Made by a program: the position numbers and the translations under genes. From Minisyncoccota bacterium (GTDB taxonomy: Bacteria > Patescibacteriota > Microgenomatia > UBA1400 > PJMF01), in assembly GCA_018657765.1 (NCBI GenBank), contig JABHWM010000020.1, positions 18,786-82,785 on the forward strand: a DNA stretch of 64,000 bases, read 5' to 3'. The stretch's first letter is position 1. Every line of letters starts with the position of its first letter. The notes under the pieces are model-generated. The model saw nothing but the letters and a program-made list of their open reading frames with translations. It did no database searches and was not told where the DNA came from. Below, piece by piece: positions 8,811-27,533 of this stretch.

Positions 8811-8818
8811 AAAATAAA

Positions 8819-9826
8819 ATGCCTGCCACAGCTATAGATATCGGCACTTACGCCGTCAAAGTCATCACTGCTGATCCTGGAAAACAACCTAATATTCATA
8901 GAGTTGTTGAGGTAATAAACCCATTTGGGACATCTCTTCCTACTGATGATTTACAAATAGAACAAATAGGAGAGCTTGTAAATAATCTTATTTTTGATAA
9001 TAAGATACCTCATAACGATGTTAGATTGAGCTTACCAGAGTCAATGGTTTCCTCAAAAATAATTTCTATTCCACCTCTTACTGATGCAGAGTTAGCTTCT
9101 GCCATAGGCTGGCAAGCAGAGCAACATATTCCTATTCAAAAAGAAGATCTTTCCTTGCAATATAGAATCTTGTTCAGACCAGAAAAAGGAGATACTCAAA
9201 CCCCTATGAGAGTCCTTCTCATCGGAACTAGAAAATCTATTGTAGAAAAATATGTAAACATGTTTATCTCGATGGGAATAGAACCAACTATTCTAGAAAC
9301 TCATGTTCTCTCCATCCTAAGATCTCTAGATATAACTCCAGAAGAACCACCTACAATGGTTCTTAACATGGGAGCAACTAATATGGATGTTGCTGTTGTT
9401 TTCAAAGGAGAAATTCAATTTGTTTTCACTCACACAGGAGTTGGTGCCTTACTTACAAAAACACTCCAACAAATTCTTGGTCTTGACCTTCAGCAAGCAG
9501 AGCAATATAAACGCTCTTATGGACTAGATCCCAATCAATTTGAAGGAAGAGTAAGAAATGCTCTACTACCAACTGTTAATACACTAGTCAGTGAAATCCA
9601 AAAAGCACAAAGATACTTTGTCAGTCAGTTTCCTCAACATAAACTATCTAGGATAGTAGTAACTGGTGGATCATCCCAACTACCAGGATTGGTAGAACAC
9701 ATATCAGAAACTCTAGGTATCGAGATACTTTTTGCAGCCCCTTTTGCGACAGCTACTGGTGAAGTTCCAACAGAAAATCAACAAACACTATCTGTTTGTT
9801 TAGGATTATTGATGAGGGAAGTCTAA
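8819..9826 (+). CDS. pilM: Type IV pilus assembly protein PilM (actin-like ATPase fold)
   Basis: IDIGTYAVKVI phosphate-1 motif and VVTGGSSQLPGL adenosine motif. Followed by pilN- and pilO-like genes. Confidence 0.8.
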   Translation: MPATAIDIGTYAVKVITADPGKQPNIHRVVEVINPFGTSLPTDDLQIEQIGELVNNLIFDNKIPHNDVRLSLPESMVSSKIISIPPLTDAELASAIGWQAEQHIPIQKEDLSLQYRILFRPEKGDTQTPMRVLLIGTRKSIVEKYVNMFISMGIEPTILETHVLSILRSLDITPEEPPTMVLNMGATNMDVAVVFKGEIQFVFTHTGVGALLTKTLQQILGLDLQQAEQYKRSYGLDPNQFEGRVRNALLPTVNTLVSEIQKAQRYFVSQFPQHKLSRIVVTGGSSQLPGLVEHISETLGIEILFAAPFATATGEVPTENQQTLSVCLGLLMREV

Positions 9827-9830
9827 AGAT

Positions 9831-10412
9831 ATGCTAGAGATTAATTTTCTCAGCCAGCGAAGACTCACTTTGACAAAAGTTGAAGAAAAAGATGTTGTCT
9901 ACCAAAAATATAGTTCTTGGGTATTTGGAGGAGTCTTACTACTTTTTTCTATCGCTGCAGGATTTAATATTTTTTTCACCCAACAACTCAAAAAAATTAA
10001 TACCAGTGAAGAACTCTTTACAAAACAAATAGCTGGTGAAGAATCAACTGAACTTACATACCTTGTCTTTGCCCATAAATTAAAAACTGTCAAAAAACTT
10101 TATCAAAATAGAAGTAATAAACAACAAGCTATTGATTATTTTTCAAACCTTTTTGGTAACCAGGTATTTTTATCTGGAATGAACTATGGGGGAGACACTA
10201 ATGAACTCTCTCTAAGATTAACTAGTGAAAATGTCTTTGCTTTAGAAAAAATTCTAAATACATTGGATTCAGAAAATGTAAAAAACTCTTTTTCATCCGT
10301 CACTAAAAGTGGCCTGAGAAGAGATAATAATGGAAGCTACAACCTTGATATTGCTATAGAATTACTAAAACAAGGAGAAATTAAAGAAGAGGAGAGTGAT
10401 GGCAACACTTAA
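9831..10412 (+). CDS. pilN: Type IV pilus assembly protein PilN
   Basis: N-terminal INFLSQRR (INLLP-type motif) followed by a single TM helix. Positioned after pilM. Confidence 0.65.
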   Translation: MLEINFLSQRRLTLTKVEEKDVVYQKYSSWVFGGVLLLFSIAAGFNIFFTQQLKKINTSEELFTKQIAGEESTELTYLVFAHKLKTVKKLYQNRSNKQQAIDYFSNLFGNQVFLSGMNYGGDTNELSLRLTSENVFALEKILNTLDSENVKNSFSSVTKSGLRRDNNGSYNLDIAIELLKQGEIKEEESDGNT

Positions 10413-11232
10413 TAATCTTAATTCCATTAATTTTTCTTTGATTATGAGTACTAGAAAAAAACTAGTCACTGCTATCTCCCTTGGAATAACTAGCTTTATT
10501 CTCTTGATTCTAACTTATACCCAAATAACAGCTATTTTTGAAACAAGAAGAAAAATAGAGATTACCCAAAAAAAAGTTGATCAATTAAATGCAAAAACTA
10601 CAGAGTTACAACAACTAAAATTCACACCAGAATATGCTCAAGCAAGTAGAATGAGTGAAGTTTTACCTTCATATAAACCACTACTAGAGCTTCTCAATAA
10701 TCTAAATTCTGTTGCCAATAAAACAAATGTTTCTATTACTGAATTTCAGATAAACCCAGGTGAAATCATTACTGAAGAAGAAGGAAAAACCAAGGTATTG
10801 GTGAAAAAAAAGCAATCAGCAGAATACGACCAATTAAATCTAGAACTTAGTATTCTAGGGGAGCTAAATCAAGTAAAAGAGTTTATGAATCTGATAGAAC
10901 GTGTATCCCCGTTAACAACTATTACTAGCCTGACTATAGATAGAAAAACAACTAGTTTTACTACAGAGGACCAGCAACTTACCAGAGCTGACCTGTTTCT
11001 TAATACTTATTACTACACAAAGCCTATTTCTTCGACTCTGTCTTCTGCATTACCAGATATCACTGTAGAAGAAAAAGATATTTTTCAAGAAATTCTAGAC
11101 TTTACCCCTCCAGAAGTAGAGAGTCAGACTCAGATTATTGGCGGGAACAACACAGACTTATTTGGAATAGATGGATTAGCTGTTAGTGATCTAGAAAAAC
11201 AAATAGAAAAAGAATTAACTTTTACAGAATAA
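10396..11232 (+). CDS. PilO-like bitopic pilus assembly protein
   Basis: Single TM helix, then a coiled-coil segment (RRKIEITQKKVDQLNAKTTELQQL). Overlaps the pilN stop by 17 nt, which suggests translational coupling. Confidence 0.45.
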   Translation: MMATLNNLNSINFSLIMSTRKKLVTAISLGITSFILLILTYTQITAIFETRRKIEITQKKVDQLNAKTTELQQLKFTPEYAQASRMSEVLPSYKPLLELLNNLNSVANKTNVSITEFQINPGEIITEEEGKTKVLVKKKQSAEYDQLNLELSILGELNQVKEFMNLIERVSPLTTITSLTIDRKTTSFTTEDQQLTRADLFLNTYYYTKPISSTLSSALPDITVEEKDIFQEILDFTPPEVESQTQIIGGNNTDLFGIDGLAVSDLEKQIEKELTFTE

Positions 11233-13742: not shown

Positions 13743-13931
13743 TTATTTAGTTGCAGTTTTTTTATTTTGATTTTTCTTGCTTGAAAAAAGCTTTGAAAAA
13801 CTAGCCATTAAGCCTCTTTTATGAAGAGGTACTTTTGTAACACGAACGTCTTTTTTTAGTTTTGGTCTGTTTCCAGCACGACGTTTACCGCGTTCTACAC
13901 TAGTGATTTTATTTTTTGGTACTGCTCCCAT
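13743..13931 (-). CDS. rpmF: 50S ribosomal protein L32
   Basis: MGAVPKNKITSVERGKRRA matches the L32 N-terminal signature (AVPKxKxSxxRxxxRR). Has a basic tail. Confidence 0.7.
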   Translation of the reverse strand: MGAVPKNKITSVERGKRRAGNRPKLKKDVRVTKVPLHKRGLMASFSKLFSSKKNQNKKTATK

Positions 13932-14214
13932 AATTTCTTTCTTTGCTTTTTCAAAAGCCAGTCGTTGTATTTCTATATTTAGAAAATTTGAGTTCTATCT
14001 ATATTTTACTACAGATATTATATTTTACTTCAATAACTGAAAAGAAGAATTGTAACGTTAAAAAAAAGAAAAATCAAGCTCATAATAGAAAATTTACAAG
14101 GACTCTTATTTTTTAATAAAAAATTGGCTTTAATTAGATGTTTATTGATTAAATAAAAATAAGTTGAAGTCCCATATTTTTTATACCAATGATACTAAAA
14201 AGTATAGAAAATAC

Positions 14215-14243
14215 TTGCAAAAACCTACTTTTGGATTTATAAT
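14215..14243 (+). promoter_or_regulatory. Near-consensus sigma70-type promoter (TTGCAA-17 nt-TATAAT)
   Basis: -35 TTGCAA at 14215-14220, a 17-nt spacer, and -10 TATAAT at 14238-14243. Lies in a 442-bp AT-rich intergenic region upstream of the 14374 gene. A 7-bp hairpin (14312-14318 / 14330-14336) lies in the putative 5' UTR. Confidence 0.5.
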
Positions 14244-14373
14244 ACTTCTTTAGACTCTGAAATATATTGTTTTATATAGTTTGGAGATTTGTACAAATAA
14301 TTATAAGTAAGCACTACTGGATATCAAAAAGTAGTGAAATTACAAACAAGTTTTATTTGAAAACTCAGGTAAC

Positions 14374-16458
14374 TTGTTAGAAAAAATACAAAACATGTCT
14401 AAAATTTTTTTTGATAGATCCCCAGGAAAACCAACTGATCGTGAACTACTAGCTGCCTTCGGTGGTAGAGGTAGAGACGCCCGTTTAAAAACAAGAGCTA
14501 ATGTTCGCTCTATGGAAAAATCTAGACAAGCTCAAGAATCTGTGGAAAGTTTGCCTGGATATAAGAAGGTTCATCTTTATGCAGACCCAAGATTAGTAGA
14601 TCAGGTTTTAAATACTTTAGAAGAAAACTTTGCTGCAATGGAATCTGCAAGATTAAGTAAAGCAAAAGCTCAATTAACTTGGGAAGCTGCACGGAGAGTT
14701 GCCAAAAAAGCTGAAGAGGCTGGAATAACTCCAGCAGAATTAAGTGCTGCTGCAAATAGTGAAAAACCAAATAGGCTTTTTTCGAAGTTTGCATCAATTA
14801 TAGAGAAAATTGGAGATACTCTAGAACCAAAACTTGTCTACAAATTAGCTGCTCCTATTTTAACCTTTGCTTTTATTTTATCTGCTTGTGGTGGTGAAGC
14901 TACTGCAACAGAAGAGCCAGATGTAAAGCCTGGAGTAACAATAGTAGCAGAGGTACCTCCAACAGCAGTAAAACCTCCTACAGAAAAAGCTCCGGCCCCT
15001 GCTATAGCTACTAGTATCCCTATGTCAGATGTTAATCTGACTTACTCTTCACAATACTCAGGGTACGAATTGGAAGCACAAGTTTTTGTTGCAAACAACT
15101 GGCCAGCTAGTCTATCTGGTGAAGCTCTTGGACAATTTGGAAGTGTGGCCTTAATTTCTAACTATGAAGTTGCAGACATTTCAAATAATCCTAGAGGTCT
15201 TATCCTCAAAATAATTGGTGAGGGTTGGCCTGAAGGAACTCATGTAATGGAATCTCCTTTTAAACCAGGAGAGCTACTATTTATGACAACTAGTTATGCT
15301 AGTGAACAACTAGGAGTAGAAGTAGCTAGTTTTGAAATAGGTGCTGACGGAAAGCCTGTTGCTGTAGATAGCAATGGAAATGTTGTGGGGTATATAAAAT
15401 ATAACGAAGATGGTACTACCTCGTATATCCTTGGGGGGAAAGATAAAGCTCCAAATGCTGTGGTTATAGAAAAAGATTACTTTGAGATGAGTATTGAGCA
15501 AAGATGGGAACACACAGCTTCATTCACAAATGAAATAAATAATGGTTTCACTGGTCTATTAGAAATAATTCCCGATCCTGATGTAGTACTTAATACAAAT
15601 CCAACAGATCCTTCTGTTTACTGGAATCCCACAACAAATAAATGGGAGTATGAAAATGAAGGTAATACAAATCAACTTGATAAAACTGGTGAAAGTTTTG
15701 GTGGTATGGTAGCGGATACAATAGAGACAGATGATGGTAACTTTATAATAAAAGACCCAGAAACTGGAGTAGAAATGACCTTTCCAGGAACAGTCTTTTT
15801 ACCTGGATTTGGAGAAATTTCACTAAAAGAGATAGCTGCAATGAATAATGAAGAATTTGGTACTAAATTAGTAGACGCTTTAATAGAAAAAGCACCAGCA
15901 GAATCAAATCCTATTTTTCTAAGCAGAACAGATAGTGTCAAAGATGATTCTGTATTTTTACCTGGATTTGTAGTTGGAACTCCAGAAGAAGATTATCCTT
16001 TAGCTGGTGGATTAAAACCAGGTGTTAACAGATCCGAAAGTGATATAGCATTTTATCAAATAGATAGTAATGACTTTTATAATCTTACTTTCAGCCCAGA
16101 GACAGGTGAAGTAATGTTTTCTGTTAAAACAAAACAAGTTAACCCTATTAGTACTTTAAATATTACTTACTCTCCAGATGGATCAACTGATTTTCAGACA
16201 AAATCTTATGGAACTACTGATAATTTTGGAATGAACGGGAAAGATGAATTTGCTGTACTTATAGAACATCATGTTCCAATAGTGTCACATAATGAAGGCG
16301 GGGGAGTTCCTGTATTACAAGGAAATCAGGGAATTTTTGGTCCAGAAGAGTTTCTTACAATGTTCTCATTTAGCTCTGAACAAGAGATTATAGATTTTGC
16401 AAAACAATATAAACTAGCAGTGTCATATGCTTTTAGAATAGCATCTCCAAAAAGATAG
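14374..16458 (+). CDS. Hypothetical bitopic envelope protein (N-terminal ~155-aa cytoplasmic region, TM with lipobox-like ILSAC, ~520-aa external domain)
   Basis: Long uninterrupted ORF with TTG start (alternative ATG at 14395). The only hydrophobic segment is LAAPILTFAFILSAC|GG (Cys172 codon at 14887-14889). No recognisable family motifs. Confidence 0.7.
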   Translation: MLEKIQNMSKIFFDRSPGKPTDRELLAAFGGRGRDARLKTRANVRSMEKSRQAQESVESLPGYKKVHLYADPRLVDQVLNTLEENFAAMESARLSKAKAQLTWEAARRVAKKAEEAGITPAELSAAANSEKPNRLFSKFASIIEKIGDTLEPKLVYKLAAPILTFAFILSACGGEATATEEPDVKPGVTIVAEVPPTAVKPPTEKAPAPAIATSIPMSDVNLTYSSQYSGYELEAQVFVANNWPASLSGEALGQFGSVALISNYEVADISNNPRGLILKIIGEGWPEGTHVMESPFKPGELLFMTTSYASEQLGVEVASFEIGADGKPVAVDSNGNVVGYIKYNEDGTTSYILGGKDKAPNAVVIEKDYFEMSIEQRWEHTASFTNEINNGFTGLLEIIPDPDVVLNTNPTDPSVYWNPTTNKWEYENEGNTNQLDKTGESFGGMVADTIETDDGNFIIKDPETGVEMTFPGTVFLPGFGEISLKEIAAMNNEEFGTKLVDALIEKAPAESNPIFLSRTDSVKDDSVFLPGFVVGTPEEDYPLAGGLKPGVNRSESDIAFYQIDSNDFYNLTFSPETGEVMFSVKTKQVNPISTLNITYSPDGSTDFQTKSYGTTDNFGMNGKDEFAVLIEHHVPIVSHNEGGGVPVLQGNQGIFGPEEFLTMFSFSSEQEIIDFAKQYKLAVSYAFRIASPKR

Positions 16459-16514
16459 ACCTAATATTTTTTATTCCCTTGCTTCTCAGGGTCATTTATT
16501 GCTAAAATGAACTT

Positions 16515-17162
16515 GTGGAAAATGAAAATATTAAAACTCTAACTGATCCAAAGCAAAAACAGGTATTATCTTTTTTTATTATAACTCTGATATTTTTTGT
16601 CGGTGTTTTATCTTTATATATATTTCTTTTTCTTAAAAAGAATAAAACTATAACAACTAAACCTACCCGGATAGAACGACCAGAAACGGAGTTCTTTGAA
16701 AAGAAATCACCTAACTCTGAGATTATCAAAACTACAGAAAATCCAAAAAACATAGTCCTTACTGACTTAGATTTGGCTCAAGATGACACTCAATCTATTG
16801 GTAAAGTTCTTCAGGGATATTCTGATAGTTATGATCCTAGTCAGCAAATATTTAAATTAAAAAATAAGCTAGTAAGAAGTACTACTCTACAACTGTTAGA
16901 AACTAGTACCAAAGAGATAACTCAATTCTATTGCTGGCCAGATACAATCTCTAGTAAAAATGGACCAGTGGAAGTTCAATCGCTACAAATATTTGTGGAA
17001 CCAGATGGTAGAGATGTAATAATGCCAACAGAAAAAATCATACCTTTGGATCAATTAGAAATATTTTTGAAAAAAGATCATTATATTATTCTTCAACTCA
17101 AACAAATATTCGATATAAATAAAACCAATGCTATTCAAAAATTAATTATAGTAGGCTGCTAG
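16515..17162 (+). CDS. Hypothetical membrane-anchored protein
   Basis: GTG start and one N-terminal TM helix (VLSFFIITLIFFVGVLSLYIFLFL). Same strand as, and tightly spaced with, its neighbours. Confidence 0.5.
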   Translation: MENENIKTLTDPKQKQVLSFFIITLIFFVGVLSLYIFLFLKKNKTITTKPTRIERPETEFFEKKSPNSEIIKTTENPKNIVLTDLDLAQDDTQSIGKVLQGYSDSYDPSQQIFKLKNKLVRSTTLQLLETSTKEITQFYCWPDTISSKNGPVEVQSLQIFVEPDGRDVIMPTEKIIPLDQLEIFLKKDHYIILQLKQIFDINKTNAIQKLIIVGC

Positions 17163-17168
17163 TAATAT

Positions 17169-19019
17169 ATGAAACAATTAAAATTATTTTTTACTATTTT
17201 TCTAAGCGTATTTTTCCTAGTAATTACATCTTTACCTAGAAAAAAATTTTCAAATAAAGTTTATGCTGCTTGCCCTGGTAACAGTAGCTGTTCATCTGAT
17301 GGCTGTGGAGTAGAATCATTACAATATACAGGTACCTTTGATGATGGATCTTCAACCCTCACCTGTACATATGATCCAGACTATTGTCAAAGTCCTGACG
17401 CTGCAACAACTGTTCCATGTCCAGATTCAGCCGATTGCCCAGCTGCATGTGAACCATGTGGTTGTACACCAGATCCAACTGATCCTTATGATACTTGTAG
17501 TTGTCCTGACTGTGATGCCAATGATCCTGATGCTGGCTGTAATCTTCCAGGTGCCTGGGATGGAGTCTGTTTTGAGGGTGGAGTAAATGATGGCTGTATT
17601 GACGATCAACATTGTATAACTTCTAATGACGGAGGAGCTTGTTTCATAAATAACGTAGATGTCTACTGCTCTGCTGGTTGTGCTGCAGGACCAACCCCTA
17701 CCTCTGGACCAGGACCAACCTCACCACCTGGAGTCACTCCCACACCCACCCCAGGCCCTCGTACCTTCCAAGGAAACTTCTACGAAGATGCAGATGCTAC
17801 AACAACCGGTATAGGAGGTACAGATAATCTCTGTACAGGACTTACCACAGCTCCTATAGTTCCAGCTATTTACATGCCTGGCTCAGAAGTCTCTGCTACT
17901 AGAACTGGTGGAGAGTCACAATCTGTATTAGCAGATACAGCCTATTACTCCATCACCACCAACACCTCCAACTCTGACTACACCGTAGCTCTCCAACTTC
18001 CATTCCCACCACCAGATCCAGACAATGCCTGGCAGTGTGCTTGTAATGCAGATCCTGGTGACCCATATCGCTGTCTTTATACAAATCAGACTCCTTCTGA
18101 CTTTGCTGTTGCTAACTTCTTCCTCAAACAAGCCAATATTGCAGATGCAGCTTGGTTCCAGACTCTAGGGGGTAGCTCTTGGGCAGCAAATAATATTGAA
18201 TCACTCATACCAACTAGTACCTGTACACCACCTAGCTGTTCTCCAGCATTAATATCTAGTGATCCAGCTGGTAATTCTGATAGTGCCGGATTCCCTCTTA
18301 CAGAGTCTGGAAGTGTCTCAACTAGTATCAGTGGTGATAACTATATTCATGAAGCAACAGATAGAACAACTGCTGTTCAAGCACAAGCCACAGGTGTATC
18401 TGTTCCTACAGAGAACTATGATTACTTCTTTGATAAAGTAGGGGACCAAGCTGAAACTCTTGCTACTGCTGCCAAGCCAATAGTAGGAACTGAACTGGGA
18501 ATCTATCAACATACAGGTAACCTAGTCATTGATGAAAATAATCCATGGAACTTAACAAATACAGAAAGAATTATTGTCTTTGTAGATGGAGATATAACTA
18601 TTGATGATACAGTCGCTGGTGAAAATAGAATTACTACTGTAGCCACTGGCGGTAATGCCTACCTAATGTTTATTTCTAGTGGAGATATAACTGTTACAGC
18701 GGATGTTGGTTACAGTAATATTGCCACAGATCCAACCACTGCAGATATCTCAAATCTAGAAGGTGTTTTCATTGCAGATGGAACCCTAACCATTGCTGGA
18801 ACAGATAGCACTACAGATCGTAAATTCATCGGTGCTGGTACTTTTGTAGGCTGGAGTGGAATAGCTTTGGGACGTAACTTTGATGATGGAGCAAGCCCAA
18901 CTCTCAATGATGATGAAGCTACAGAAACATTTATCTTTAGACCAGACTTCTTGGTAAATACTCCAAAAGCAATAAAATCTGCTCAAATGACCTGGAGAGA
19001 AGTAGAACCTAGTTTCTAA
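17169..19019 (+). CDS. Secreted protein: signal peptide + 20-Cys/Asp-rich module + Pro/Thr linker + ~420-aa conserved domain (paralog A)
   Basis: Signal peptide ending KVYA|A. 20 Cys in residues 35-171 (nt 17271-17681). Linker GPTPTSGPGPTSPPGVTPTPTPGP. The C-terminal domain is colinear with the next gene. Confidence 0.8.
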   Translation: MKQLKLFFTIFLSVFFLVITSLPRKKFSNKVYAACPGNSSCSSDGCGVESLQYTGTFDDGSSTLTCTYDPDYCQSPDAATTVPCPDSADCPAACEPCGCTPDPTDPYDTCSCPDCDANDPDAGCNLPGAWDGVCFEGGVNDGCIDDQHCITSNDGGACFINNVDVYCSAGCAAGPTPTSGPGPTSPPGVTPTPTPGPRTFQGNFYEDADATTTGIGGTDNLCTGLTTAPIVPAIYMPGSEVSATRTGGESQSVLADTAYYSITTNTSNSDYTVALQLPFPPPDPDNAWQCACNADPGDPYRCLYTNQTPSDFAVANFFLKQANIADAAWFQTLGGSSWAANNIESLIPTSTCTPPSCSPALISSDPAGNSDSAGFPLTESGSVSTSISGDNYIHEATDRTTAVQAQATGVSVPTENYDYFFDKVGDQAETLATAAKPIVGTELGIYQHTGNLVIDENNPWNLTNTERIIVFVDGDITIDDTVAGENRITTVATGGNAYLMFISSGDITVTADVGYSNIATDPTTADISNLEGVFIADGTLTIAGTDSTTDRKFIGAGTFVGWSGIALGRNFDDGASPTLNDDEATETFIFRPDFLVNTPKAIKSAQMTWREVEPSF

Positions 19020-19038
19020 CCTGGTATAAATTAAAAAT

Positions 19039-20364
19039 ATGCTATTTATTTTTCTACTAACCTTTCTTTTTTTGGTGTCTTTTTCACCAGTTTCTGCTAA
19101 TAGTTTTTCTGGTCAACTTTATGAAGATCCTGATGCCAATACAATTGGTTTTGGAGGGACAGATAACCGCTGTGAGGGAAGTCTTGAAACACCTGTTGTA
19201 GGAGCTGGCTTCAGAGCAAAAGCACTTAGGACCGGAGAAACAGACTACGGCACCTTCATGGGAGCTACTTATACCATTACTACTGGAACAAATAACCTAG
19301 ACTATACAGTCACCATAGATATGCCTTATCCTCCAGCAGATCCCGCTAATGCCTGGCAATGTGCTTGTAATGCAAATCCACTAGATCCATACCAATGTAT
19401 TTTTACCAATCAAGATCCTACTGATTTATCATCCTTAAATTTTTTTATAAAACGAGCCAATGCCAATAACAATTCATGGTGGCAAGTCCTAGGTGGAAAT
19501 ATATTCTCCAAACAAAATATCCAAAGCCTCATTCCAAACTCTGAACTACCTGGATACTGTAATACTACACCTGGATGTATTCCTGCTTTGATAGATACAA
19601 ATCCTACACTAACCCTAGAGAGTCCCGGGTTTGCCTTTACTCTAGATGGCTCTATTTCTACAAGCCAAATCCCAGGATCATCCTTTCTACATACAAGTCA
19701 AAGTAGAACAAATGCCCTCCAAGCTTTTGCCTTAACTTCTGATCTTCCAGAAGAAAAATATGACTTTTTTTACAAAAAAATGAAACAAGAAAGTGTTGCT
19801 TTACCTAGTTCTCAAAAACCAGTTCCAACAGAAAATCCAGGGATATATCTCCATTCTGGAGATCTAACAATTAATGATCAAAACTCCTGGCAGGTGTTAA
19901 ATACAGAACAAATAATTGTTTTTATCACTGGGAACTTACTGATTGATGATACTAGTGGTGAGCAACGCATAATCACAGTAGAGAAGGGTGGAGATGGATT
20001 TCTATCATTTATTGTTCAGGAAGATATTATTATCTCTCCTAACGTGGGCTACACAGATATTATGACTGATCCACACTCAGCAAATATTCCACTAGTAGAA
20101 GGAGTCTTTATAGCTGATGGTAAAATTCAAATTCAAGGAACAGCTGATACTCAAGATAAAAAATTTATTGGTGCTGGAACCTTTGTAAGTTGGGATGGGG
20201 TACAACTCCAAAGAAGCTTTGCTACACCAGGGAACAATTCTTTGAATAATATTAGTCCAGCAGAAGTCTTTATTTTCCGTCCAGATTTTCTAGTTAATAC
20301 TCCCAAGAACATGAAAGCTGCTCATTTTTACCTCAGAGAACTACAACCAAAACTATTACAATAA
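19039..20364 (+). CDS. Secreted protein, paralog B of the preceding gene's C-terminal domain
   Basis: Signal peptide ending VSA|NS. Blocks shared with paralog A: YEDxDAxTxGxGGTDNxC, NAWQCACNAxPxDPYxC, IIVFxxG..IDDT, EGVFIADG, KFIGAGTFV and IFRPDFLVNTPK. Confidence 0.8.
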   Translation: MLFIFLLTFLFLVSFSPVSANSFSGQLYEDPDANTIGFGGTDNRCEGSLETPVVGAGFRAKALRTGETDYGTFMGATYTITTGTNNLDYTVTIDMPYPPADPANAWQCACNANPLDPYQCIFTNQDPTDLSSLNFFIKRANANNNSWWQVLGGNIFSKQNIQSLIPNSELPGYCNTTPGCIPALIDTNPTLTLESPGFAFTLDGSISTSQIPGSSFLHTSQSRTNALQAFALTSDLPEEKYDFFYKKMKQESVALPSSQKPVPTENPGIYLHSGDLTINDQNSWQVLNTEQIIVFITGNLLIDDTSGEQRIITVEKGGDGFLSFIVQEDIIISPNVGYTDIMTDPHSANIPLVEGVFIADGKIQIQGTADTQDKKFIGAGTFVSWDGVQLQRSFATPGNNSLNNISPAEVFIFRPDFLVNTPKNMKAAHFYLRELQPKLLQ

Positions 20365-20399
20365 AAATATAACAAAACTCACTTAATAATTGAAAAAAT

Positions 20400-20996
20400 A
20401 TGAACATAAAAAATATAATAAACCAGCATAAAAATAGTAAAGAAAAATCTTGTAAACAAAATCAACAAGCTGGCTTTACTCTGATAGAACTACTCATCGT
20501 CTCGACAATTACTGTTATGGTTATGATGACCGTTACTGCAATGTTACTTACTTTTATCATTACTTCAAAAAAATCTAGCATCAAGCAAAAAGTTAATAAT
20601 GAAGGTAATAATGCTTTATCAAAAATAGAGTTCGTTTTACGGAACTCCCAAAAACTGGTGGCTGGACTGGACGGTTCTACTATCTGTAGTAATGATGCAG
20701 AAACACCTATGACAGATATTGCTATTCAAGGACTAGACGGCTATGTAACTACTCTTCAGACATATCCTTTGGAAAATGGACAAATTGCCTCATATTCTTC
20801 GGCTATTAATGATTACTACTATATAACCTCAGATGAAACAACTCTTTCAAATTTACAGTTTACTTGTCTGACAGGAGAAGAGAATTCTTACTATGTAGGA
20901 GTCTCGTTTGACCTCAAAATCGGTTCTGGACTATCAAGTGATAAAGAGACAGCTATTGAGAATTTTCAGACTGGAATAACCCTTAGAAATCATTAA
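20400..20996 (+). CDS. Prepilin-type N-terminal cleavage/methylation domain protein (minor pilin)
   Basis: Class III signal ..NQQAG|FTLIELLIVSTI with Glu at +5. The leader is 25 aa long. Confidence 0.8.
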   Translation: MNIKNIINQHKNSKEKSCKQNQQAGFTLIELLIVSTITVMVMMTVTAMLLTFIITSKKSSIKQKVNNEGNNALSKIEFVLRNSQKLVAGLDGSTICSNDAETPMTDIAIQGLDGYVTTLQTYPLENGQIASYSSAINDYYYITSDETTLSNLQFTCLTGEENSYYVGVSFDLKIGSGLSSDKETAIENFQTGITLRNH

Positions 20997-21017: not shown

Positions 21018-21491
21018 CTAATCCCATTTACGAAAAGTCTGAACAAGCTCTACATCTTTTACACTATCATTAGTGGACCATGAAACAGTAATTTTCACTC
21101 TTATCTGTGGCTCACTCGGTACTGTTTCATCAACAACAACCTCTGCTTCTCTAAAAAACTCTTGACTGGATATAACAATTGTATCTGTAGCCTCACAAGC
21201 ACCAGCCACAAAAGCTTCTTTAGGAGCGGGGATAGTTTGAAAACAATAAGTAGTATTATCTCTCAAGGAATCTGAAAAACCTTCCCAACCCAATAAAGTT
21301 CTTTCTCTACGAAATGCCTCCATTGCTATTTGAGCTCTCTTTACTGCCTGAGACCTGTATTCTGACTCCGCATTTGTCTTCAGTGATAAAGTCAAACTAG
21401 CTACAATAGCCGTCAAAACTAAAGCCATAACACCTACAGCTACAATAATCTCGATAAGACTAGAACCTTTTTGTAATACAAATTTACTCAT
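21018..21491 (-). CDS. Pilin-like/pseudopilin protein (PilV/GspI-like)
   Basis: MSKFVLQKG|SSLIEIIVAVGVMALVL, with Gly at -1, Glu at +5 and a hydrophobic helix. Confidence 0.7.
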   Translation of the reverse strand: MSKFVLQKGSSLIEIIVAVGVMALVLTAIVASLTLSLKTNAESEYRSQAVKRAQIAMEAFRRERTLLGWEGFSDSLRDNTTYCFQTIPAPKEAFVAGACEATDTIVISSQEFFREAEVVVDETVPSEPQIRVKITVSWSTNDSVKDVELVQTFRKWD

Positions 21492-21997
21492 TACTGCCAG
21501 TCTCCTTCGCTAAACCTACCTTCTCTATAAATAGTAAAAGTAAAACTATTTGTTTCATTAGAAACATTAATAGCCTCACTAGCTGCTCCTCCAGTCAGAT
21601 CAACCCCAGCATGTAAAACATTAAAATTATAATCAATAGTAGGACTAATATTTACTCTTCTAGCAAACTCATAGGTCTCTGCAGCATCGGCTGTTCCAAT
21701 ACTACAAGTTGCTTGTAAAGAAAGCTCTGTTATTTCTCCAACTTGATAAGTCATTACTCTATAACCACTTAGCTGATCACAACCACCAAGATCACCAGAG
21801 CTAGCTTCTGCCTGAGCTCTTTGAAAAAACGTCTTTAACTCGTCTACAGAATTACTGACTTTTCTTTTATCTAGATAATTTAAAAAAGTTCCAATAATAC
21901 TACTCATTAAAATCAAACTAATAGCTACTGCCACTAACAACTCTATTAAGGTAAATCCTTGCTTTTTTTTGTTGGTAAGTTTTTTATTAATTAACAT
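21491..21997 (-). CDS. Prepilin-type minor pilin
   Basis: Start preferred at ATG 21997 (MLINKKLTNKKKQG|FTLIELLVAV). The longer ORF-track start at 22045 would overlap the upstream pilin gene. Confidence 0.8.
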   Translation of the reverse strand: MLINKKLTNKKKQGFTLIELLVAVAISLILMSSIIGTFLNYLDKRKVSNSVDELKTFFQRAQAEASSGDLGGCDQLSGYRVMTYQVGEITELSLQATCSIGTADAAETYEFARRVNISPTIDYNFNVLHAGVDLTGGAASEAINVSNETNSFTFTIYREGRFSEGDWQ

Positions 21998-22013
21998 CTT
22001 TTGTAAAATAAAA

Positions 22014-22415
22014 CTACGGATTCTGTACAGAATAAGCAGTGTCATCTGGTTCTAAAGCAGCCTCTAGAGTAAATCCGGATGCCTCAGTTGTATTACACGT
22101 TCCAGATGGGACATAGGTATATAAAGGATTTGCCTCACTACCCAAAGGATCAAAAGGAATTTCATTTGTATAGCCATCAATAGTAGTCAACATTGCCAAA
22201 TAAGTAACATCTGCTGGATAACAACCATTATCACTACGATACAAAACAAGCTGCTGCTGAACAGACAAAATATCTGACTTTCTTTTGGCATTACGACTAC
22301 TTTGAGTAGCCTGCCTGTAACTAACCAGAGCTATAGTTGTAAGAATAATCATGATTGTAGAAACCACAAGGATCTCGATCATTGAAAATCCATGATTGTT
22401 GTTTTTTATTTTCAT
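22014..22415 (-). CDS. Prepilin-type minor pilin
   Basis: MKIKNNNHG|FSMIEILVVSTI class III signal. Confidence 0.8.
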   Translation of the reverse strand: MKIKNNNHGFSMIEILVVSTIMIILTTIALVSYRQATQSSRNAKRKSDILSVQQQLVLYRSDNGCYPADVTYLAMLTTIDGYTNEIPFDPLGSEANPLYTYVPSGTCNTTEASGFTLEAALEPDDTAYSVQNP

Positions 22416-22453
22416 AATATGAGATTAATACTTTCTATTACTTTTCATAAACT

Positions 22454-22885
22454 TTACTGTAAGTTTGTCAAACAATAATAATCACCTGAAGTATAGTCAC
22501 AAGTAACTCCAGAAGGTGCAGAAGAATTTCCTATACTACCTTCCAAATAAGCACAGACACAATATCCGGTAGCGTCACAACCATCAGCAGTGTTATAGAT
22601 AAAACTACCAGAGTTTTTGGGATCGCTTGGCAAACCTCCAGGCATGATTGCACCAGATCCAGAGTCATAAGCCGCCATAGTACTACATGCTTCATAAGAA
22701 GTATTATCTGCTTTATATTGCTCAAAAGCATCCTGCATAGCTTTTATATCACCCCGTCTTCTACTATCTCTACCTTTTTTCTGTACCGTAATAAATGCCA
22801 CTGTTCCCAAAGCAATCAAGATTCCCATGATAGAGATCACTACCAATAGTTCTAATAGACTAAAACCTTTTTGTTTTTTTTTCAT
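22454..22885 (-). CDS. Prepilin-type pilin (GspG/PilA-like)
   Basis: MKKKQKG|FSLLELLVVISIMGILIALG, followed by a RDSRRRGDIKAMQDAFEQY helix typical of T2SS-G/T4 pilins. Confidence 0.85.
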   Translation of the reverse strand: MKKKQKGFSLLELLVVISIMGILIALGTVAFITVQKKGRDSRRRGDIKAMQDAFEQYKADNTSYEACSTMAAYDSGSGAIMPGGLPSDPKNSGSFIYNTADGCDATGYCVCAYLEGSIGNSSAPSGVTCDYTSGDYYCLTNLQ

Positions 22886-22939: not shown

Positions 22940-23974
22940 TTATGGACTTACTTGAACTTGTATTCTAGAAAGTCCTTCCAGGCTACTTTTTACACCCTGC
23001 TTTGTCTCTGCCTGAAGAATAACATTATAAATACACCTAGATCCACCAGTACAAGTATATGTATGTTGAACCCTGCCATTTAGATCTAGTAAATCTTCTA
23101 TTTTCCCATCACCAAAATTAATAGTTACCTTATTAACCTGATCTTCTTCTGAATTTTTTTCTGCATACTTATTCAAAATTCTTATTAATTTATCATCCCA
23201 ACGCAGTTCCATCTCAGACTCTCCAAAAATAGTTTCTTGGGCAAAGACATCTCCTTTGACATCACTAACTGTATAAATAAACTCCATAAAATCTCCAGAT
23301 TTTAGAAAAACAACTCTAGATTCAGAACTAACAGCTGGCTCAGAATTAAATGTCAAAACTACTGGTTTTTCACTACAACTAGAATAACAAGATCTAGGGC
23401 AATCAAGAGCATCTGTCTGTTGAAAGTCTTGACCAGATTGATAGGTGCTTTCACAGCAAGTATAGCCATATCCACCACAAACGGTAGCTGGACCTTCATT
23501 CAAAACCACACTTAGATCTGCATCGACTTTGCTAGAACTCACAATAACTGACTCATCTTCATAAACAATTCCAGTTCTACCAAAAATAGAAAGCTCTAGG
23601 CCATGAAGATATTGACCTTGAATAAAACCAGACTGACCTTTTCCTCTTCTTACCAAAGCTGGTAAGGTTTTCCTCTTGATAACATTACGAAGATCTTCAG
23701 AAACCTGACAAACAGATTCCAAAACATACTCTCTATCAGAAATAAAACGAAGCTGATTTCTTACCAAAATGCCATCATCAGTAAAAGCACCACCATACTC
23801 CAAGCAATCTTTGACAAGGTCGTGAGGAGTCTGAAGCTTAGAAAGGTATCGGACATCACTTTTGAGCTGTCTTAGCCCTGTAGAAAGAAGAATCTCCCGA
23901 CTAATAAAACCTCCTAGAAAAAAGAGAATAAATATAAAGAAAGTGGCAGTAAAAAATATCTTTAGAACTCGCAT
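22940..23974 (-). CDS. Hypothetical membrane-anchored Cys-rich protein with PKD-like C-terminal domain
   Basis: N-terminal TM helix, a Cys cluster (CGGYGYTCCES..DCPRSCYSSCSEKP), and a C-terminus INFGDGKIE..VQHTYTCTGGSRCIYNVILQAETKQG that resembles a PKD repeat. Confidence 0.6.
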   Translation of the reverse strand: MRVLKIFFTATFFIFILFFLGGFISREILLSTGLRQLKSDVRYLSKLQTPHDLVKDCLEYGGAFTDDGILVRNQLRFISDREYVLESVCQVSEDLRNVIKRKTLPALVRRGKGQSGFIQGQYLHGLELSIFGRTGIVYEDESVIVSSSKVDADLSVVLNEGPATVCGGYGYTCCESTYQSGQDFQQTDALDCPRSCYSSCSEKPVVLTFNSEPAVSSESRVVFLKSGDFMEFIYTVSDVKGDVFAQETIFGESEMELRWDDKLIRILNKYAEKNSEEDQVNKVTINFGDGKIEDLLDLNGRVQHTYTCTGGSRCIYNVILQAETKQGVKSSLEGLSRIQVQVSP

Positions 23975-23989
23975 AAATTAGCCAGTAAA

Positions 23990-24808
23990 TCAGCTAACTA
24001 ATATCTTGACATATTCTGCCCAAACTGCATATCCCCAGACTAAACTAAGACCTGTAGAAAGCAGGAGAAATGGACCAAAAGGCAGAGTTTGTCCAAACTT
24101 TTTTTTCTTTATTAAAATCAAAAATACTCCTACCAAAGCCCCTATTACAAATGATCCAAAAATAGCGACTAAAATTCTTTGCCATGATCCAAGTAAAAGC
24201 CCCAACGGTATAGCCAGTTTTACATCTCCAAAACCAAACCCTTTGCCTTTAGTAAAAAACCACAAGGAAAAAAAGAAACTTACTAGACAAAAAGTCCATA
24301 ACAAACTAAATCCAAAATCTCTAAACTGCATCTCACCTTTATAGAGTAGGGCGAACCTATAAGCCAAAGTTCCTATTGTAAGAAGAGCAACCGTCCAATC
24401 AGGAATAATCATATACTTGAGGTCTGTAATAAAAATAACCACAAAAATAACTGCAACAAATAACCAAAAGGCTGGTTGCACATAGAGTAGAGGAGCGGCA
24501 GTGATCTTGAAAAAAACAAACCCTGCAAAGTACCACCATAAAAATAAAATACCAGTCATTCCCTCTACCAGAGGATGAACAAGACCTATTTTTGCCTGAC
24601 ATTTGGAACATTTTCCCTTCAGAAATAAATAGGAAAACAAAGGAATATTTTCATACCATGGGATCTTCTTTTTACAGTGTTCACAAACAGAACGAGCTCG
24701 TACCCAATCCTGACCACGCATAGATCTATAAATCAAGACATTTAGAAAACTACCAACAGCAGTTCCAAAGAAAAAAACTAGAATACCCATGATCTCAAAA
24801 AAGTTCAT
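23990..24808 (-). CDS. pilD: Prepilin peptidase (A24 family, PilD)
   Basis: N-terminal Zn-finger-like CEHCKKKIPWYENIPLFSYLFLKGKCSKC, the catalytic GFGDVKL motif, and a polytopic topology. Confidence 0.9.
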   Translation of the reverse strand: MNFFEIMGILVFFFGTAVGSFLNVLIYRSMRGQDWVRARSVCEHCKKKIPWYENIPLFSYLFLKGKCSKCQAKIGLVHPLVEGMTGILFLWWYFAGFVFFKITAAPLLYVQPAFWLFVAVIFVVIFITDLKYMIIPDWTVALLTIGTLAYRFALLYKGEMQFRDFGFSLLWTFCLVSFFFSLWFFTKGKGFGFGDVKLAIPLGLLLGSWQRILVAIFGSFVIGALVGVFLILIKKKKFGQTLPFGPFLLLSTGLSLVWGYAVWAEYVKILVS

Positions 24809-24901
24809 GTCTTTGAGTATACATGGTTGAGATTATGGGTGGTATTTAAAAATATTTTTTGTGAGACAAGAATAAAACTGTAAAAATAAGAAATAAGCAG
24901 T

Positions 24902-24930
24902 AAAAAAGCGGCCATGATGACCGCTTTTTT
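24902..24930. terminator. Bidirectional hairpin AAAAAAGCGG-9 nt-CCGCTTTTTT
   Basis: 10-bp stem (24902-24911 / 24921-24930) with A/T runs on both sides. Lies between the small Flp-like gene and pilD. Confidence 0.5.
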
Positions 24931-24961
24931 GTTCTTTAAATTTACCTCCCTAGAATAAAGT

Positions 24962-25150
24962 TTAAAAGGATAATGCATTTTCCATTATCCAAATAAAATA
25001 ATCCGCCAAATAGTTCATCCATCCTAAGATGGACAAACCTGTTTCGATTTTAATAAAGTAACTAATCCCAGAAAGGATTATTACTAAAACTAAAATCATC
25101 AAAGCCGACTCTACGAGCCCTTGACCTTTCTCTTTTTCACTAAATAGCAT
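24962..25150 (-). CDS. Small Flp/Fap-like pilin candidate (62 aa)
   Basis: ATG at 25150 is preceded by GGAGAG. MLFSEKEKG|QGLVESALMILVLVIILSG resembles the Flp-type G/xxxxE(Y) class III signal. The ORF-track TTG start at 25171 is less likely. Confidence 0.45.
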   Translation of the reverse strand: MLFSEKEKGQGLVESALMILVLVIILSGISYFIKIETGLSILGWMNYLADYFIWIMENALSF

Positions 25151-25536
25151 TTTTCTCTCCAATAATTTCAAGTTATCTTTTTAAAGATAAAGTTTAGTTT
25201 TACGAGCTTGAAACAACAATTCAGGATTTAATCTAGAATCACTCTTTCAAGCCCATATCTCTATTAAAATTACAAGAAAAATAGGGTAGAGGTGCTAAAA
25301 AACTTTATTTAAATTTATCTACTGAATATTTACTGCATTAGTAAAATCCAATATCAAAAAAATTAAATTTAGCTTATAGCATTTAATTTTGAAAGAACTC
25401 AATCATTATATATTAAAAGTTATAGGATGTCAATCTTGGCTAAAATAAATACAAAAAAACTGCCCACACCCCTAAAGGGGTTTATCTCACAATAAACTGA
25501 CAAACAACTTAATAATCACTTCAACCCCAACAAAAA

Positions 25537-25558
25537 CTCCCCTGTAAAAACAGGGGAG
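25537..25558 (-). terminator. Rho-independent terminator downstream of the major pilin gene
   Basis: Perfect 8-bp stem CTCCCCTG/CAGGGGAG with a 6-nt loop. On the minus strand it is followed by TTTTTG. Confidence 0.7.
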
Positions 25559-25588
25559 TAGTATCTTCAATAATTATTTTTTACAAAA

Positions 25589-26221
25589 TTATGGGAGACA
25601 GACACAGTTACCAATAGCACCACATTGAGCAGTGTTACCGATAGCACTAGCAGCTGGATAATCAGCTGGATAGTTATCTAGAGTATCATCTCCATCTGGA
25701 TCAAGTCTTGTATCTACCTCTTGCACAAAAGCATTTGATTTTGGTGCAAAACAAGCATAAGTACTAGCTCCTTGAGTCCCAGAATTATAAAGATAGAGGT
25801 AATTATAAGTTGTCTGAGAAACTCTTTCCAAGAAACTTTGTTTCAACTCATCAGCTCCAGTACAACCTACAGTAGAAGCTGTTCCTATTTTTTCTGCAAT
25901 AGGACAAGTACCACCACTATCTGTTAAAGTACTATCTTCAAAATGGACCCATGCTAAACCAACATTTCCAGAATCAGAAGCCCCTACTTGCCATGGATAA
26001 AATCCATTAAATGCATAGTAACGATCGATAGCACTAATCAATTGTTCTGCATCAGATCTGTTTCCAGTATCTCTACCTCTGTTGATCTGCTCAATAGGAT
26101 TAATGGCTGCCAAAACTGCCACTGCCAAAATTCCTAAAATACCGATAACAATCAGTAGTTCAATCATCGTAAAACCAGCTTGCTGTTTTATTTGATTTAA
26201 AAGTGAAAATATCTTTTTCAT
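25589..26221 (-). CDS. pilA: Type IV pilin, probable major subunit
   Basis: MKKIFSLLNQIKQQAG|FTMIELLIVIGILGILAVAVLAAINPIEQINRGRD. Has its own terminator, an AAAGGAA RBS, and C-terminal Cys pairs. Confidence 0.85.
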   Translation of the reverse strand: MKKIFSLLNQIKQQAGFTMIELLIVIGILGILAVAVLAAINPIEQINRGRDTGNRSDAEQLISAIDRYYAFNGFYPWQVGASDSGNVGLAWVHFEDSTLTDSGGTCPIAEKIGTASTVGCTGADELKQSFLERVSQTTYNYLYLYNSGTQGASTYACFAPKSNAFVQEVDTRLDPDGDDTLDNYPADYPAASAIGNTAQCGAIGNCVCLP

Positions 26222-26323
26222 ATTATCTAAATTCCTTTCTTTAATTTCAATATCTACTATAAACTATTTCTTGACAGTAATACAAGGGTGTTCCAGTCCA
26301 AAACAACTATTTTAATAAAAAAA

Positions 26324-27526
26324 CTAAAACTGACTGGTCAAACTGTATATTGGCATAATAATAGCAATCACCATTGCCCCAACACCTATTCCTAGTACTA
26401 CCATAATTAATGGCTCCATAGCAGAGGTAAGATTCTTGACTGCTTGCTCACTTTCAGATTCAAAATACTTTGAGAGCTTTAATAAAACTTCATCTAGTTT
26501 TCCAGTTTCTTCACCTACCGCAAGCATTTGATGTAAAATTCCTGGAAATAAGCTAAATACAGAAACTGCTCCAGACAAAGAAACACCTTTCTCTACTTTT
26601 TTACTAATACTTTGCATTGCCTCTCGATACAAAATACTATCCATAGACTCAGTCACGATCATCAAAGCATTCAATAAAGGAACTCCAGAATTCAATAGAA
26701 GAGATAATGTTCTAGCAAAACTAGTCAAAATTATTTTCTGCCTTAGGGTTCCAATAATAGGTACTTTAAACAAAAATCCATCTATTTTTCTTTGACCAAT
26801 TTTTGTTTTGTTCCAACTTCGAAGTCCAGAAACTCCGCCACCAATAATAGAAAGAATTAACCACCAATACTTCGCCATAAAGTTGGCTACAGACATCAAA
26901 ATCAGAGTAGGGAGTGGTAGCTCAGCCCCAAAATCTTTATACATATCAGTGAGTTTCGGAATAACAAAAATCATCATCACAAAACCAACAACCAACATAG
27001 CGATAAAAACAATTATAGGGTAAATCATGGCCCCTTTTGTTTTTGCCTTAAACTCTTTATCTTTCTCTAAATTTTCAGCTAATTTATCCAATACTTTATC
27101 CAAAACACCACCCAATTCACCAGCTTTTACCAACTGAATATAGGTACGATCAAAAACATCGGATTGCTTTGCCAGAGATTTGGCAAAGGTAGATCCACCT
27201 TCTACTTCTCGCAGTAGAGAACTTACAACTTCTTTCATTGCTGGATTATCTTGTTCTTTGAGAATATTTAACCCTGTAGCCAAGGGTAGACCAGCATCAA
27301 TCATGGTTGATAACTGTCTAGTAAAGTTAACTAGATCTTCATGTTTTACTTTATTTAGAGCACCAGACAGAACAGAAAGCCCAGAACCACTTAAAAGAGA
27401 AATATCTATTACCAATAATTTTCTACTAATTAAAACACCCGCAGCTTGACTCTTATCTTGAGCTTCGACTTTACCTTTTACGGTTTCACCGTGAGGATTT
27501 TTGGCTGTATAAGAAAAAATAGCCAT
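26324..27526 (-). CDS. pilC: Type IV pilus platform protein PilC (GspF family)
   Basis: 400 aa with two T2SS-F repeats, three TM segments and the typical ..GEETGKLDEVL.. motif. Confidence 0.9.
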   Translation of the reverse strand: MAIFSYTAKNPHGETVKGKVEAQDKSQAAGVLISRKLLVIDISLLSGSGLSVLSGALNKVKHEDLVNFTRQLSTMIDAGLPLATGLNILKEQDNPAMKEVVSSLLREVEGGSTFAKSLAKQSDVFDRTYIQLVKAGELGGVLDKVLDKLAENLEKDKEFKAKTKGAMIYPIIVFIAMLVVGFVMMIFVIPKLTDMYKDFGAELPLPTLILMSVANFMAKYWWLILSIIGGGVSGLRSWNKTKIGQRKIDGFLFKVPIIGTLRQKIILTSFARTLSLLLNSGVPLLNALMIVTESMDSILYREAMQSISKKVEKGVSLSGAVSVFSLFPGILHQMLAVGEETGKLDEVLLKLSKYFESESEQAVKNLTSAMEPLIMVVLGIGVGAMVIAIIMPIYSLTSQF

Positions 27527-27533
27527 AAACTTA

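Follow-up and report, generated by a model that had tools for sequence, protein, structure and literature searches.

What does an operon of four uncharacterised envelope and secreted proteins, closed by a prepilin gene and running head-on into a type IV pilus locus, do for a bacterium within the candidate phyla radiation (CPR)? Type IV pili are believed to be the means by which these bacteria locate and keep hold of their hosts, and to our knowledge no CPR pilus adhesin is known outside Saccharibacteria. We addressed this question in a window (the whole stretch of DNA analysed, 64,000 nucleotides (nt) long) from a Minisyncoccota bacterium, contig JABHWM010000020.1 of assembly GCA_018657765.1, which carries five such genes, here called g1 to g5. 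The secreted proteins g3 and g4 belong to a large family whose constant C-terminal half is modelled as a beta-solenoid, and genes of this family are commonly followed at once by an orthologue of the prepilin gene g5. We favour, tentatively and short of calling it probable, the reading that g1 to g5 form a tip adhesin module, similar to PilY1 or ComZ, that is loaded onto the pilus through g5. A surface complex that works independently of the pilus is nearly as likely. What appears to be conserved as a functional unit is the family protein plus the g1-like and g2-like proteins that accompany it, forming a surface module in CPR bacteria and some Chloroflexi. In the searchable literature we found no description of the g3/g4 family or module, of the related domain DUF7305, or of CPR pilus tip proteins resembling g3 and g4.

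The block consists of the following features, with lengths in amino acids (aa):

14215-14243, + strand: candidate sigma-70-type promoter TTGCAA-17-TATAAT, read from the sequence, within the divergent stretch that separates a small bL32-like open reading frame (ORF) from g1
14374-16458, + strand: g1, 694 aa from a TTG start, bitopic protein
16515-17162, + strand: g2, 215 aa, GTG start, N-terminal anchor
17169-19019, + strand: g3, 616 aa, predicted secreted member of the family
19039-20364, + strand: g4, 441 aa, predicted secreted paralog of g3
20400-20996, + strand: g5, 198 aa, prepilin with a 25-aa leader

Coordinates, strands and gaps were read directly from the window sequence, and membrane topology was taken from hydropathy. 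All five ORFs lie where the original prediction had placed them, on one strand and separated by gaps of 56, 6, 19 and 35 nt from g1-g2 to g4-g5. The identical g1 in the public annotation of a Candidatus Pacebacteria metagenome-assembled genome is started at the ATG at 14395, giving 687 aa. Terminator-like sites in the region are not enriched (9, compared with 4.9 +/- 2.3 in shuffled sequences). With a single strand, short gaps, conserved promoter hexamers and terminator-like sites not above chance, the block behaves as a single operon at the level of its sequence.

The promoter had been proposed as near-consensus, and its sequence and position are as described. The match alone is at chance level in this AT-rich DNA, where the region holds 27 promoter-like sites and shuffled versions of it hold 26.3 +/- 5.4, and two sites outscore it, so that we dropped it as a statistical signal of a single sequence. 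It was reinstated by conservation. In the orthologous intergenic regions of four loci (L008-L011, alignment A7), TTGCA, TAYAAT and the 17-nt spacing are invariant, inside an alignment whose mean column identity around the hexamers is 62% only. Because the hexamers and their spacing are held constant within a poorly conserved alignment, we accept 14215-14243 as the likely promoter of the operon. All five orthologous intergenic regions of A7 share a second invariant block (ATCCTATATT; window 14140-14200), placed about 40 nt upstream of the -35 hexamer; it may be the site of a regulator or serve as promoter for the small divergent ORF. This ORF, 62 aa at 13743-13931 on the - strand (MGAVPKNKITSVERGKRRAG...), diverges from g1 and matches only Ribosomal_L32p, weakly (E 0.07, below cut-off); in L001, L004 and L005 the annotation has a similar small ORF at this position.

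The two secreted proteins carry the argument. As the original prediction had claimed, g3 and g4 are paralogs with signal-like N-terminal segments, sharing 48% identity over 424 aa (E 5e-138). In g3, whose first 200 aa contain 20 Cys, a signal peptide is followed by a Cys-rich module, a PT linker, a beta-sandwich and a C-terminal beta-solenoid. g4 has a signal peptide and no Cys-rich module, with the beta-sandwich at aa 21-140 and the beta-solenoid at aa 240-420. None of g1 to g4 matches a curated family in the Pfam and NCBIfam scans, in agreement with the earlier statement that they lack a motif of PilY1, a secretin or a vWA domain; for g3 and g4 this includes PilY1/Neisseria_PilC at E values up to 1.

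A word-indexed search with g4 returned 50 relatives, all of them hypothetical proteins of Patescibacteria. With a family profile, HMMER recovered 2729 members at E <= 1e-3 and 576 at E <= 1e-30 among 1.84 billion cluster representatives, the figure of 2729 counting clusters at 50% identity. Members are mostly from CPR bacteria, with some from Chloroflexi. The profile match reaches the extreme C terminus of every target, behind N-terminal parts that differ widely in length and reach ~1300 aa. The long members carry CBM_4_9, Big_2, Big_7, fn3, Laminin_G (including Laminin_G_3), F5/8-type C (discoidin), TSP1 and Gly_rich_2 domains. The architecture of the family thus comprises a signal peptide, a Cys-rich module, exchangeable modules of the CBM, Ig and LamG types and, at the C terminus, a conserved part made of a beta-sandwich and a triangular beta-solenoid. 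Such binding-type modules fit the role of an adhesin.

An AlphaFold2 model of g4 reached a mean predicted local distance difference test (pLDDT) score of 82.9, with values above 90 for residues 240-400 of the solenoid and less certainty in the middle part. The model contains a triangular beta-solenoid with a flanking helix beside it, and an N-terminal helix of 13 residues that corresponds to the signal peptide; there is no pilin fold. g3 and g4 were also considered as cryptic pilins, and this was ruled out by the lack of a G/FxxxE motif and of a long N-terminal helix in the model. In a Foldseek search, the top matches of g4 were the FfIBP entries 7ehk and 4nu2 (E 7e-3 to 2e-2), which are DUF3494-type ice-binding proteins, and ice-binding-type solenoids were also its best matches among viral models (BFVD). 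These are the best structural matches of the C-terminal domain, though weak, and there is no Pfam sequence match to DUF3494; ice binding is not implied. Sequence searches of the PDB with g4, with family profiles A1 and A5 and with the DUF7305-bearing relative P0206 gave no informative match, and ComZ was not found.

The closest link to a named domain is DUF7305 (PF23981), which touches the solenoid of divergent members (P0167, E 2.7e-5; P0103, E 0.0047). The best DUF7305 score of a relative is 24.6 bits, just under the gathering cut-off of 27 bits. P0205-P0207 combine a precomputed DUF7305 match with family-profile matches of 1e-27 to 1e-31, and P0206 has the full family architecture. g3 and g4 themselves do not match DUF7305 even at E values up to 10. 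On these sequence comparisons, the g3/g4 family is related to DUF7305 at the superfamily level only.

The last gene of the operon encodes a prepilin, as had been predicted from its 25-aa leader. The motif QQAG25/F26TLIE30 has the features of a class III signal, with a short charged leader, Gly at -1, a hydrophobic residue at +1, Glu at +5 and a hydrophobic helix, and g5 scores above the cut-offs of Pfam N_methyl (24.7 bits, cut-off 21.2) and TIGR02532 (17.5 bits, cut-off 16.3). F26, L28 and E30 are invariant in 24 g5 orthologues, and the well-defined orthologous group has a pair of invariant Cys as well as a C-terminal LRN. Both a prepilin peptidase and assembly components are encoded nearby: PilD (A24_N_bact and Peptidase_A24 domains), PilC, PilT and PilB within 10 kb of g5, and PilM, PilO and an ORF in the PilN position upstream. 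Against the PDB, the g5 profile matched pilin N-terminal helices only.

Among the loci then collected, 40 full-length matches to the g5 profile (a few of them in duplicate loci) all stand beside a family gene, and other pilins match the profile solely in the N-terminal helix. A scan started from g5, which relied on the generic pilin N terminus only, gave two clear orthologues with a readable context (L066 and L067). In both, the g5 orthologue closes the pilin operon, the very next gene is pilX_N or pilM, and family, g1 and g2 genes are absent. By these comparisons, g5 is the ancestral terminal pilin of the core minor set and not a pilin invented for the g1-g4 module. Since it occurs in pilin operons without a family gene, g5 is therefore not a dedicated partner of g3 and g4.

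To see how the family is placed elsewhere, we scanned one genome per species with the family profile and classified the resulting 55 loci by script:

family gene followed by a g5 orthologue on the same strand: 30 of 55 loci
g5 on the other strand: 1 of 55 loci
other pilus genes nearby, no g5: 2 of 55 loci
no pilus gene in the locus: 20 of 55 loci
no complete family ORF within the locus: 2 of 55 loci

The linkage of the family to prepilin genes in other genomes is thus borne out in 30 of the 55 loci, and it is repeated in a distant one. L064 encodes a very distant family member, where a g1-like protein with Tat-type signal and lipobox, together with the family gene, converges on a differently organised pilin operon. 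The last gene of that operon, which abuts the family gene on the opposite strand, is a g5 orthologue (profile hidden Markov model E 1.9e-20; other pilins ~1e-6). The earlier notion of a pilus-associated surface module is supported in part: the linkage to g5 is conserved and the binding modules of relatives fit an adhesin, and the module is not specific to pili.

A pilus-independent surface complex, in which g1 (held by lipid or by its transmembrane span) and g2 tether the solenoid proteins to the envelope as a fixed adhesin or envelope structure, and the adjacency to pilus genes and g5 is a gene order inherited in one lineage, is a serious alternative, which we regard as nearly as likely as a tip adhesin. 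Several observations weigh against a tip adhesin, and most of them favour this alternative. In the 20 loci without a pilus gene, none lies within ~8 kb of the family gene, and g1-like and g2-like genes still precede the family gene in several of them, such as L040, L044, L041 and L042, and in two further pilus-less contexts, L063 and L065. Relatives of g2 stand directly upstream of family genes in unlinked loci, and g5 in turn is found without an adjoining family gene in L066 and L067. Linked and unlinked copies interleave in a tree of the C-terminal domain. Most linked loci belong to one syntenic block of 30 kb, and because the whole region is syntenic they are not independent observations. 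A mirror-tree test, based on partial correlations of evolutionary distances with PilC and PilD controlled for, gave no specific signal between g5 and the family (0.13), a result that by itself we do not count as evidence against their partnership. The strongest value of the family with any pilin was that with pil133, the 133-aa prepilin at 22014-22415 on the - strand (0.57), and g5 correlated above 0.5 with pil157 and pil143. Finally, the fold matches of g4 are weak (E 7e-3 or worse, TM-score 0.45-0.48 relative to the target), and ComZ is not among the 50 Foldseek matches listed for g4.

Inherited gene order accounts less well for the tightness of the coupling to the terminal minor pilin in Paceibacteria-type genomes. 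The spacer from the family gene to g5, measured in 31 non-redundant linked loci, has a median length of 3 nt, and in 10 cases the two genes overlap. In the lineage of the window g5 alone has moved to the strand of the family operon, whereas in L064 and L066 it lies within the pilin operon. The adjacency recurs in L064 although the pilin operon there is laid out differently.

The partners of the solenoid proteins are the most variable part of the operon. The topology proposed for both holds up in hydropathy profiles: g1 has one hydrophobic span (aa 154-173), and g2 has an N-terminal anchor (aa 14-43) followed by a predicted extracytoplasmic domain. From its N terminus, g1 consists of a helical region of ~150 aa that is predicted to be cytoplasmic, the transmembrane span, a Pro/Thr linker and an ectodomain of ~470 aa. 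Only 2 matches to g1 were found among 5.8e9 proteins. Its identity to the closest syntenic loci is 26-29% and that of g2 is 36-50%, compared with 55-89% for g3, g4, g5 and the neighbouring genes, so that both diverge far faster than each gene around them.

The span of g1 ends in a lipobox-like ILSAC172 (Cys172 codon at 14887-14889). Set against the bacterial lipoprotein pattern [LVI][ASTVI][GAS]C after the h-region, ILSAC172 closes the sole span, and the n-region of ~150 aa is overlong. A start codon nearer to the span, which would give a normal lipoprotein, was ruled out, since from residue 89 to the transmembrane segment the frame contains neither ATG nor GTG nor TTG. In about 20 positional equivalents of g1 (including L040, L044, L053 and L064), the transmembrane segment likewise ends in a lipobox-like [LVI]x[GAS]C, and among these proteins only a juxtamembrane helix, the transmembrane segment, this motif and a Pro-rich linker are conserved. 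In g1 and its equivalents, the predicted cytoplasmic region before the span measures 90-220 aa, far longer than normal lipoprotein signals; in L064 and the Chloroflexi loci the g1 equivalent has a Tat-type RRDFLK signal instead. From these features, g1 is best described as a protein of hypervariable sequence whose transmembrane segment has a lipobox-like Cys at its predicted outer end. A Pfam scan of ten g1-like proteins from other loci yielded nothing useful, and an AlphaFold2 model of g1 from a 2-sequence alignment (pLDDT 33.6) was not used.

g2 has two invariant Cys (C140 and C215, alignment A8). A profile search found 16 relatives, each directly upstream of a family gene, including those of L041 and L042, which have no pilus genes. 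Profile searches with the g2 family against Pfam and the PDB gave no match.

How, then, might the operon work on a pilus? In the tip adhesin reading, g3 and g4 would be exported by Sec, and g1 and g2 would be membrane-held partners that retain the secreted proteins or hand them over. g5, as the last of the core minor-pilin set, would prime pilus assembly, and the conserved solenoid half of g3 and g4 could dock onto the priming complex containing g5. Carried outward on the pilus tip, g3 and g4 would act as an adhesin whose ligand, on a host or a surface, is most probably a glycan. The tight operon, the conserved promoter and the adjacency to g5 in 30 of 55 loci and L064 favour this reading. In classical loci, pilY1 sits at the end of the minor-pilin series (the fimU-pilVWXY1E arrangement), and the position of our block at the end of such a series counts for it as well. 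An exposed binding function is suggested by the variable modules on a constant C-terminal half, the Cys-rich extracellular composition and the extreme divergence of g1 and g2, since fast evolution is expected of exposed interaction surfaces. We infer tip location and host contact, and go no further, because the module is not specific to pili, g5 is not dedicated to it and the two show no specific co-variation.

Two known systems offer models for such a tip. Like g3 and g4, the PilY1 proteins that act with PilV/W/X in the type IVa pili of Pseudomonas and Myxococcus are large non-pilins bearing a Sec signal, and their genes lie at the end of a minor-pilin series. They too combine a conserved C-terminal domain with a variable adhesive N-terminal part, and they are proposed to sit on the tip priming complex. 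Unlike PilY1, g3 and g4 have neither the PilY1/PilC beta-propeller nor a vWA domain, and their conserved domain is a predicted beta-solenoid; the g1-g4 module also includes two extra membrane proteins and occurs away from pilus genes. The second model is ComZ of Thermus thermophilus, with a triangular beta-solenoid that is reported to have FfIBP as its nearest solved relative and to bind the adjacent minor pilin PilA2; ComZ has been proposed to cap the pilus tip (PMC6561018). The likeness lies in the FfIBP entries that head, with weak scores, the Foldseek list of g4 and in the position of the gene beside a minor pilin. ComZ carries its solenoid as an insertion in a GspK-like pilin fold, within one polypeptide (PMC6561018), whereas g3 and g4 have cleavable-type signal peptides and no pilin domain, the pilin g5 being a separate gene; the g3/g4 family also has no detectable sequence similarity to any PDB chain. 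In PilX1/PilX2 of Saccharibacteria (PMC11623550) and in PilB of Streptococcus sanguinis (PMC8179133), modules for adhesion (jelly-roll, propeller, vWA) are fused to a pilin and are host-binding candidates. These resemble our case as adhesion modules borne by the pili of CPR or monoderm bacteria, and differ in that the adhesive domain is fused to the pilin there and forms separate gene products here. g3 and g4 are therefore neither members of the PilY1 family nor ComZ-type pilins, and by analogy they may work like either.

A more specific version of the tip adhesin reading describes a split ComZ. In this version, a Sec-secreted solenoid adhesin with a fold like that of ice-binding proteins would be captured by the terminal minor pilin, and g1 and g2 would form a loading platform. 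The exchangeable N-terminal modules and the fast-evolving g1 and g2 would be host-range determinants of Paceibacteria-type episymbionts, and unlinked copies would supply alternative cargoes in trans. Taken as a whole, this is an unlikely scheme.

Less plausible still is that the solenoid is a carbohydrate-active enzyme, a lyase or hydrolase such as pectate lyases and phage tailspikes, that degrades polysaccharide of the host wall or matrix and is targeted by modules of the carbohydrate-binding type. The CBM_4_9, Laminin_G_3 and discoidin domains of relatives would suit such an enzyme, as would the invariant charged residues R223, R392, R414, D416 and E434 in the C-terminal half. However, no glycoside hydrolase or lyase family matches in Pfam, NCBIfam or the sequences of the PDB, the best fold matches are non-enzymatic solenoids of the ice-binding type, and a Foldseek match to isopullulanase has a probability of 0.04. 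We consider this reading improbable.

That the solenoid proteins are a ComZ-like receptor binding extracellular DNA at the pilus tip for uptake, in cells that are thought to need DNA uptake for nucleotides, is the most improbable reading of all, for although the fold class is that reported for ComZ, the gene adjoins a minor pilin as comZ adjoins pilA2, and pil133, the pilin that co-varies most strongly with the family, resembles ComP_DUS weakly (E 1.6e-4, below cut-off), g3 and g4 lack the pilin-like domain of ComZ, the variable modules of their relatives are of glycan- or protein-binding types, the family is found in 20 of 55 loci without a pilus gene, and no DNA-binding motif was found.

The pilus genes around the operon belong to one system:

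8010-11232, + strand: PilX_N-like protein, PilM, a 193-aa ORF in the PilN position and PilO, from Pfam matches
21018-22885, - strand: four minor prepilin genes (157, 184, 133 and 143 aa), from Pfam N_methyl
22940-30422, - strand: a 344-aa protein, PilD, a 210-aa major-type pilin, PilC, PilT and PilB, from Pfam matches

The 193-aa ORF has no Pfam match and is placed by position. The genes rpsP, rnc and nusB, on the - strand, separate the first group from g1-g5, and the synteny of this group with the block is conserved across related loci. The four-prepilin set is kept in all syntenic loci; the N_methyl and ComGE matches of its 157-aa pilin are both below cut-off, as is a T2SSG match of pil133. 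Genes of the window outside the pilus super-locus are housekeeping genes.

As predicted, the block converges on the pilus operon, with the g5 stop and that of the facing pilin gene 21 nt apart (20996/21018) and no terminator-like structure between them. In many orthologous loci the 3' ends of these two genes overlap by 4 nt. With 3' ends this close or overlapping and no terminator, the convergent transcripts must overlap.

Further observations concern the pilus operon itself. The 344-aa protein (22940-23974, - strand), between the minor pilins and pilD, has an N-terminal transmembrane segment, is Cys-rich, gives a weak hint of PKD_4 (E 0.025) and is conserved in each syntenic pilus locus examined. 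The gap between pilD and the major-type pilin gene (24809-25588) measures 780 nt, compared with only ~65-115 nt in L001 and L005; inside it lies a 69-aa ORF (24962-25171, - strand) with a pilin-like N terminus (EKGQGLVESALMILVLVIIL) and no Pfam match. Farther along, a tyrosine recombinase gene (Phage_integrase, 37724-38668, - strand) lies ~630 nt from tRNA-Ala (37020-37094, - strand), and beyond it ~1.8 kb contain no ORF of at least 110 aa. The region 37020-38668 may, judging from this arrangement, be the edge of an integrated element.

Away from pili, the family occurs in other settings. On a genuinely Chloroflexi contig (GC content 51%) the family gene is present three times, every copy preceded by a gene for a protein with a Tat-type signal. 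L042 (OY760067.1, labelled Anaerolineales, chromosome 2) carries g1-like, g2-like and family genes, and its family protein is 49% identical to one from Paceibacteria. The locus has a GC content of only 22-43% and adjoins ParA and restriction-modification genes, which suggests horizontal transfer or a mislabelled replicon. A second recurring context (L065 and the P0047 contig) opens with a large protein and an anchor of ~210 aa, continues with one or two family genes and then has an M16 peptidase and a nucleoside diphosphate kinase; in L065 it sits downstream of secA.

The locus is a concrete candidate for host recognition in uncultured CPR bacteria. If the coupling to the pilus is not physical, g1, g2 and the solenoid proteins would be an undescribed surface module of monoderm CPR bacteria and Chloroflexi. 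If it is physical, a separately secreted solenoid would represent a third way to put an adhesin on a pilus tip, beside the fused modular pilin and the PilY1 propeller, and the operon would provide a sequence marker for the evolution of host specificity in uncultured episymbionts.

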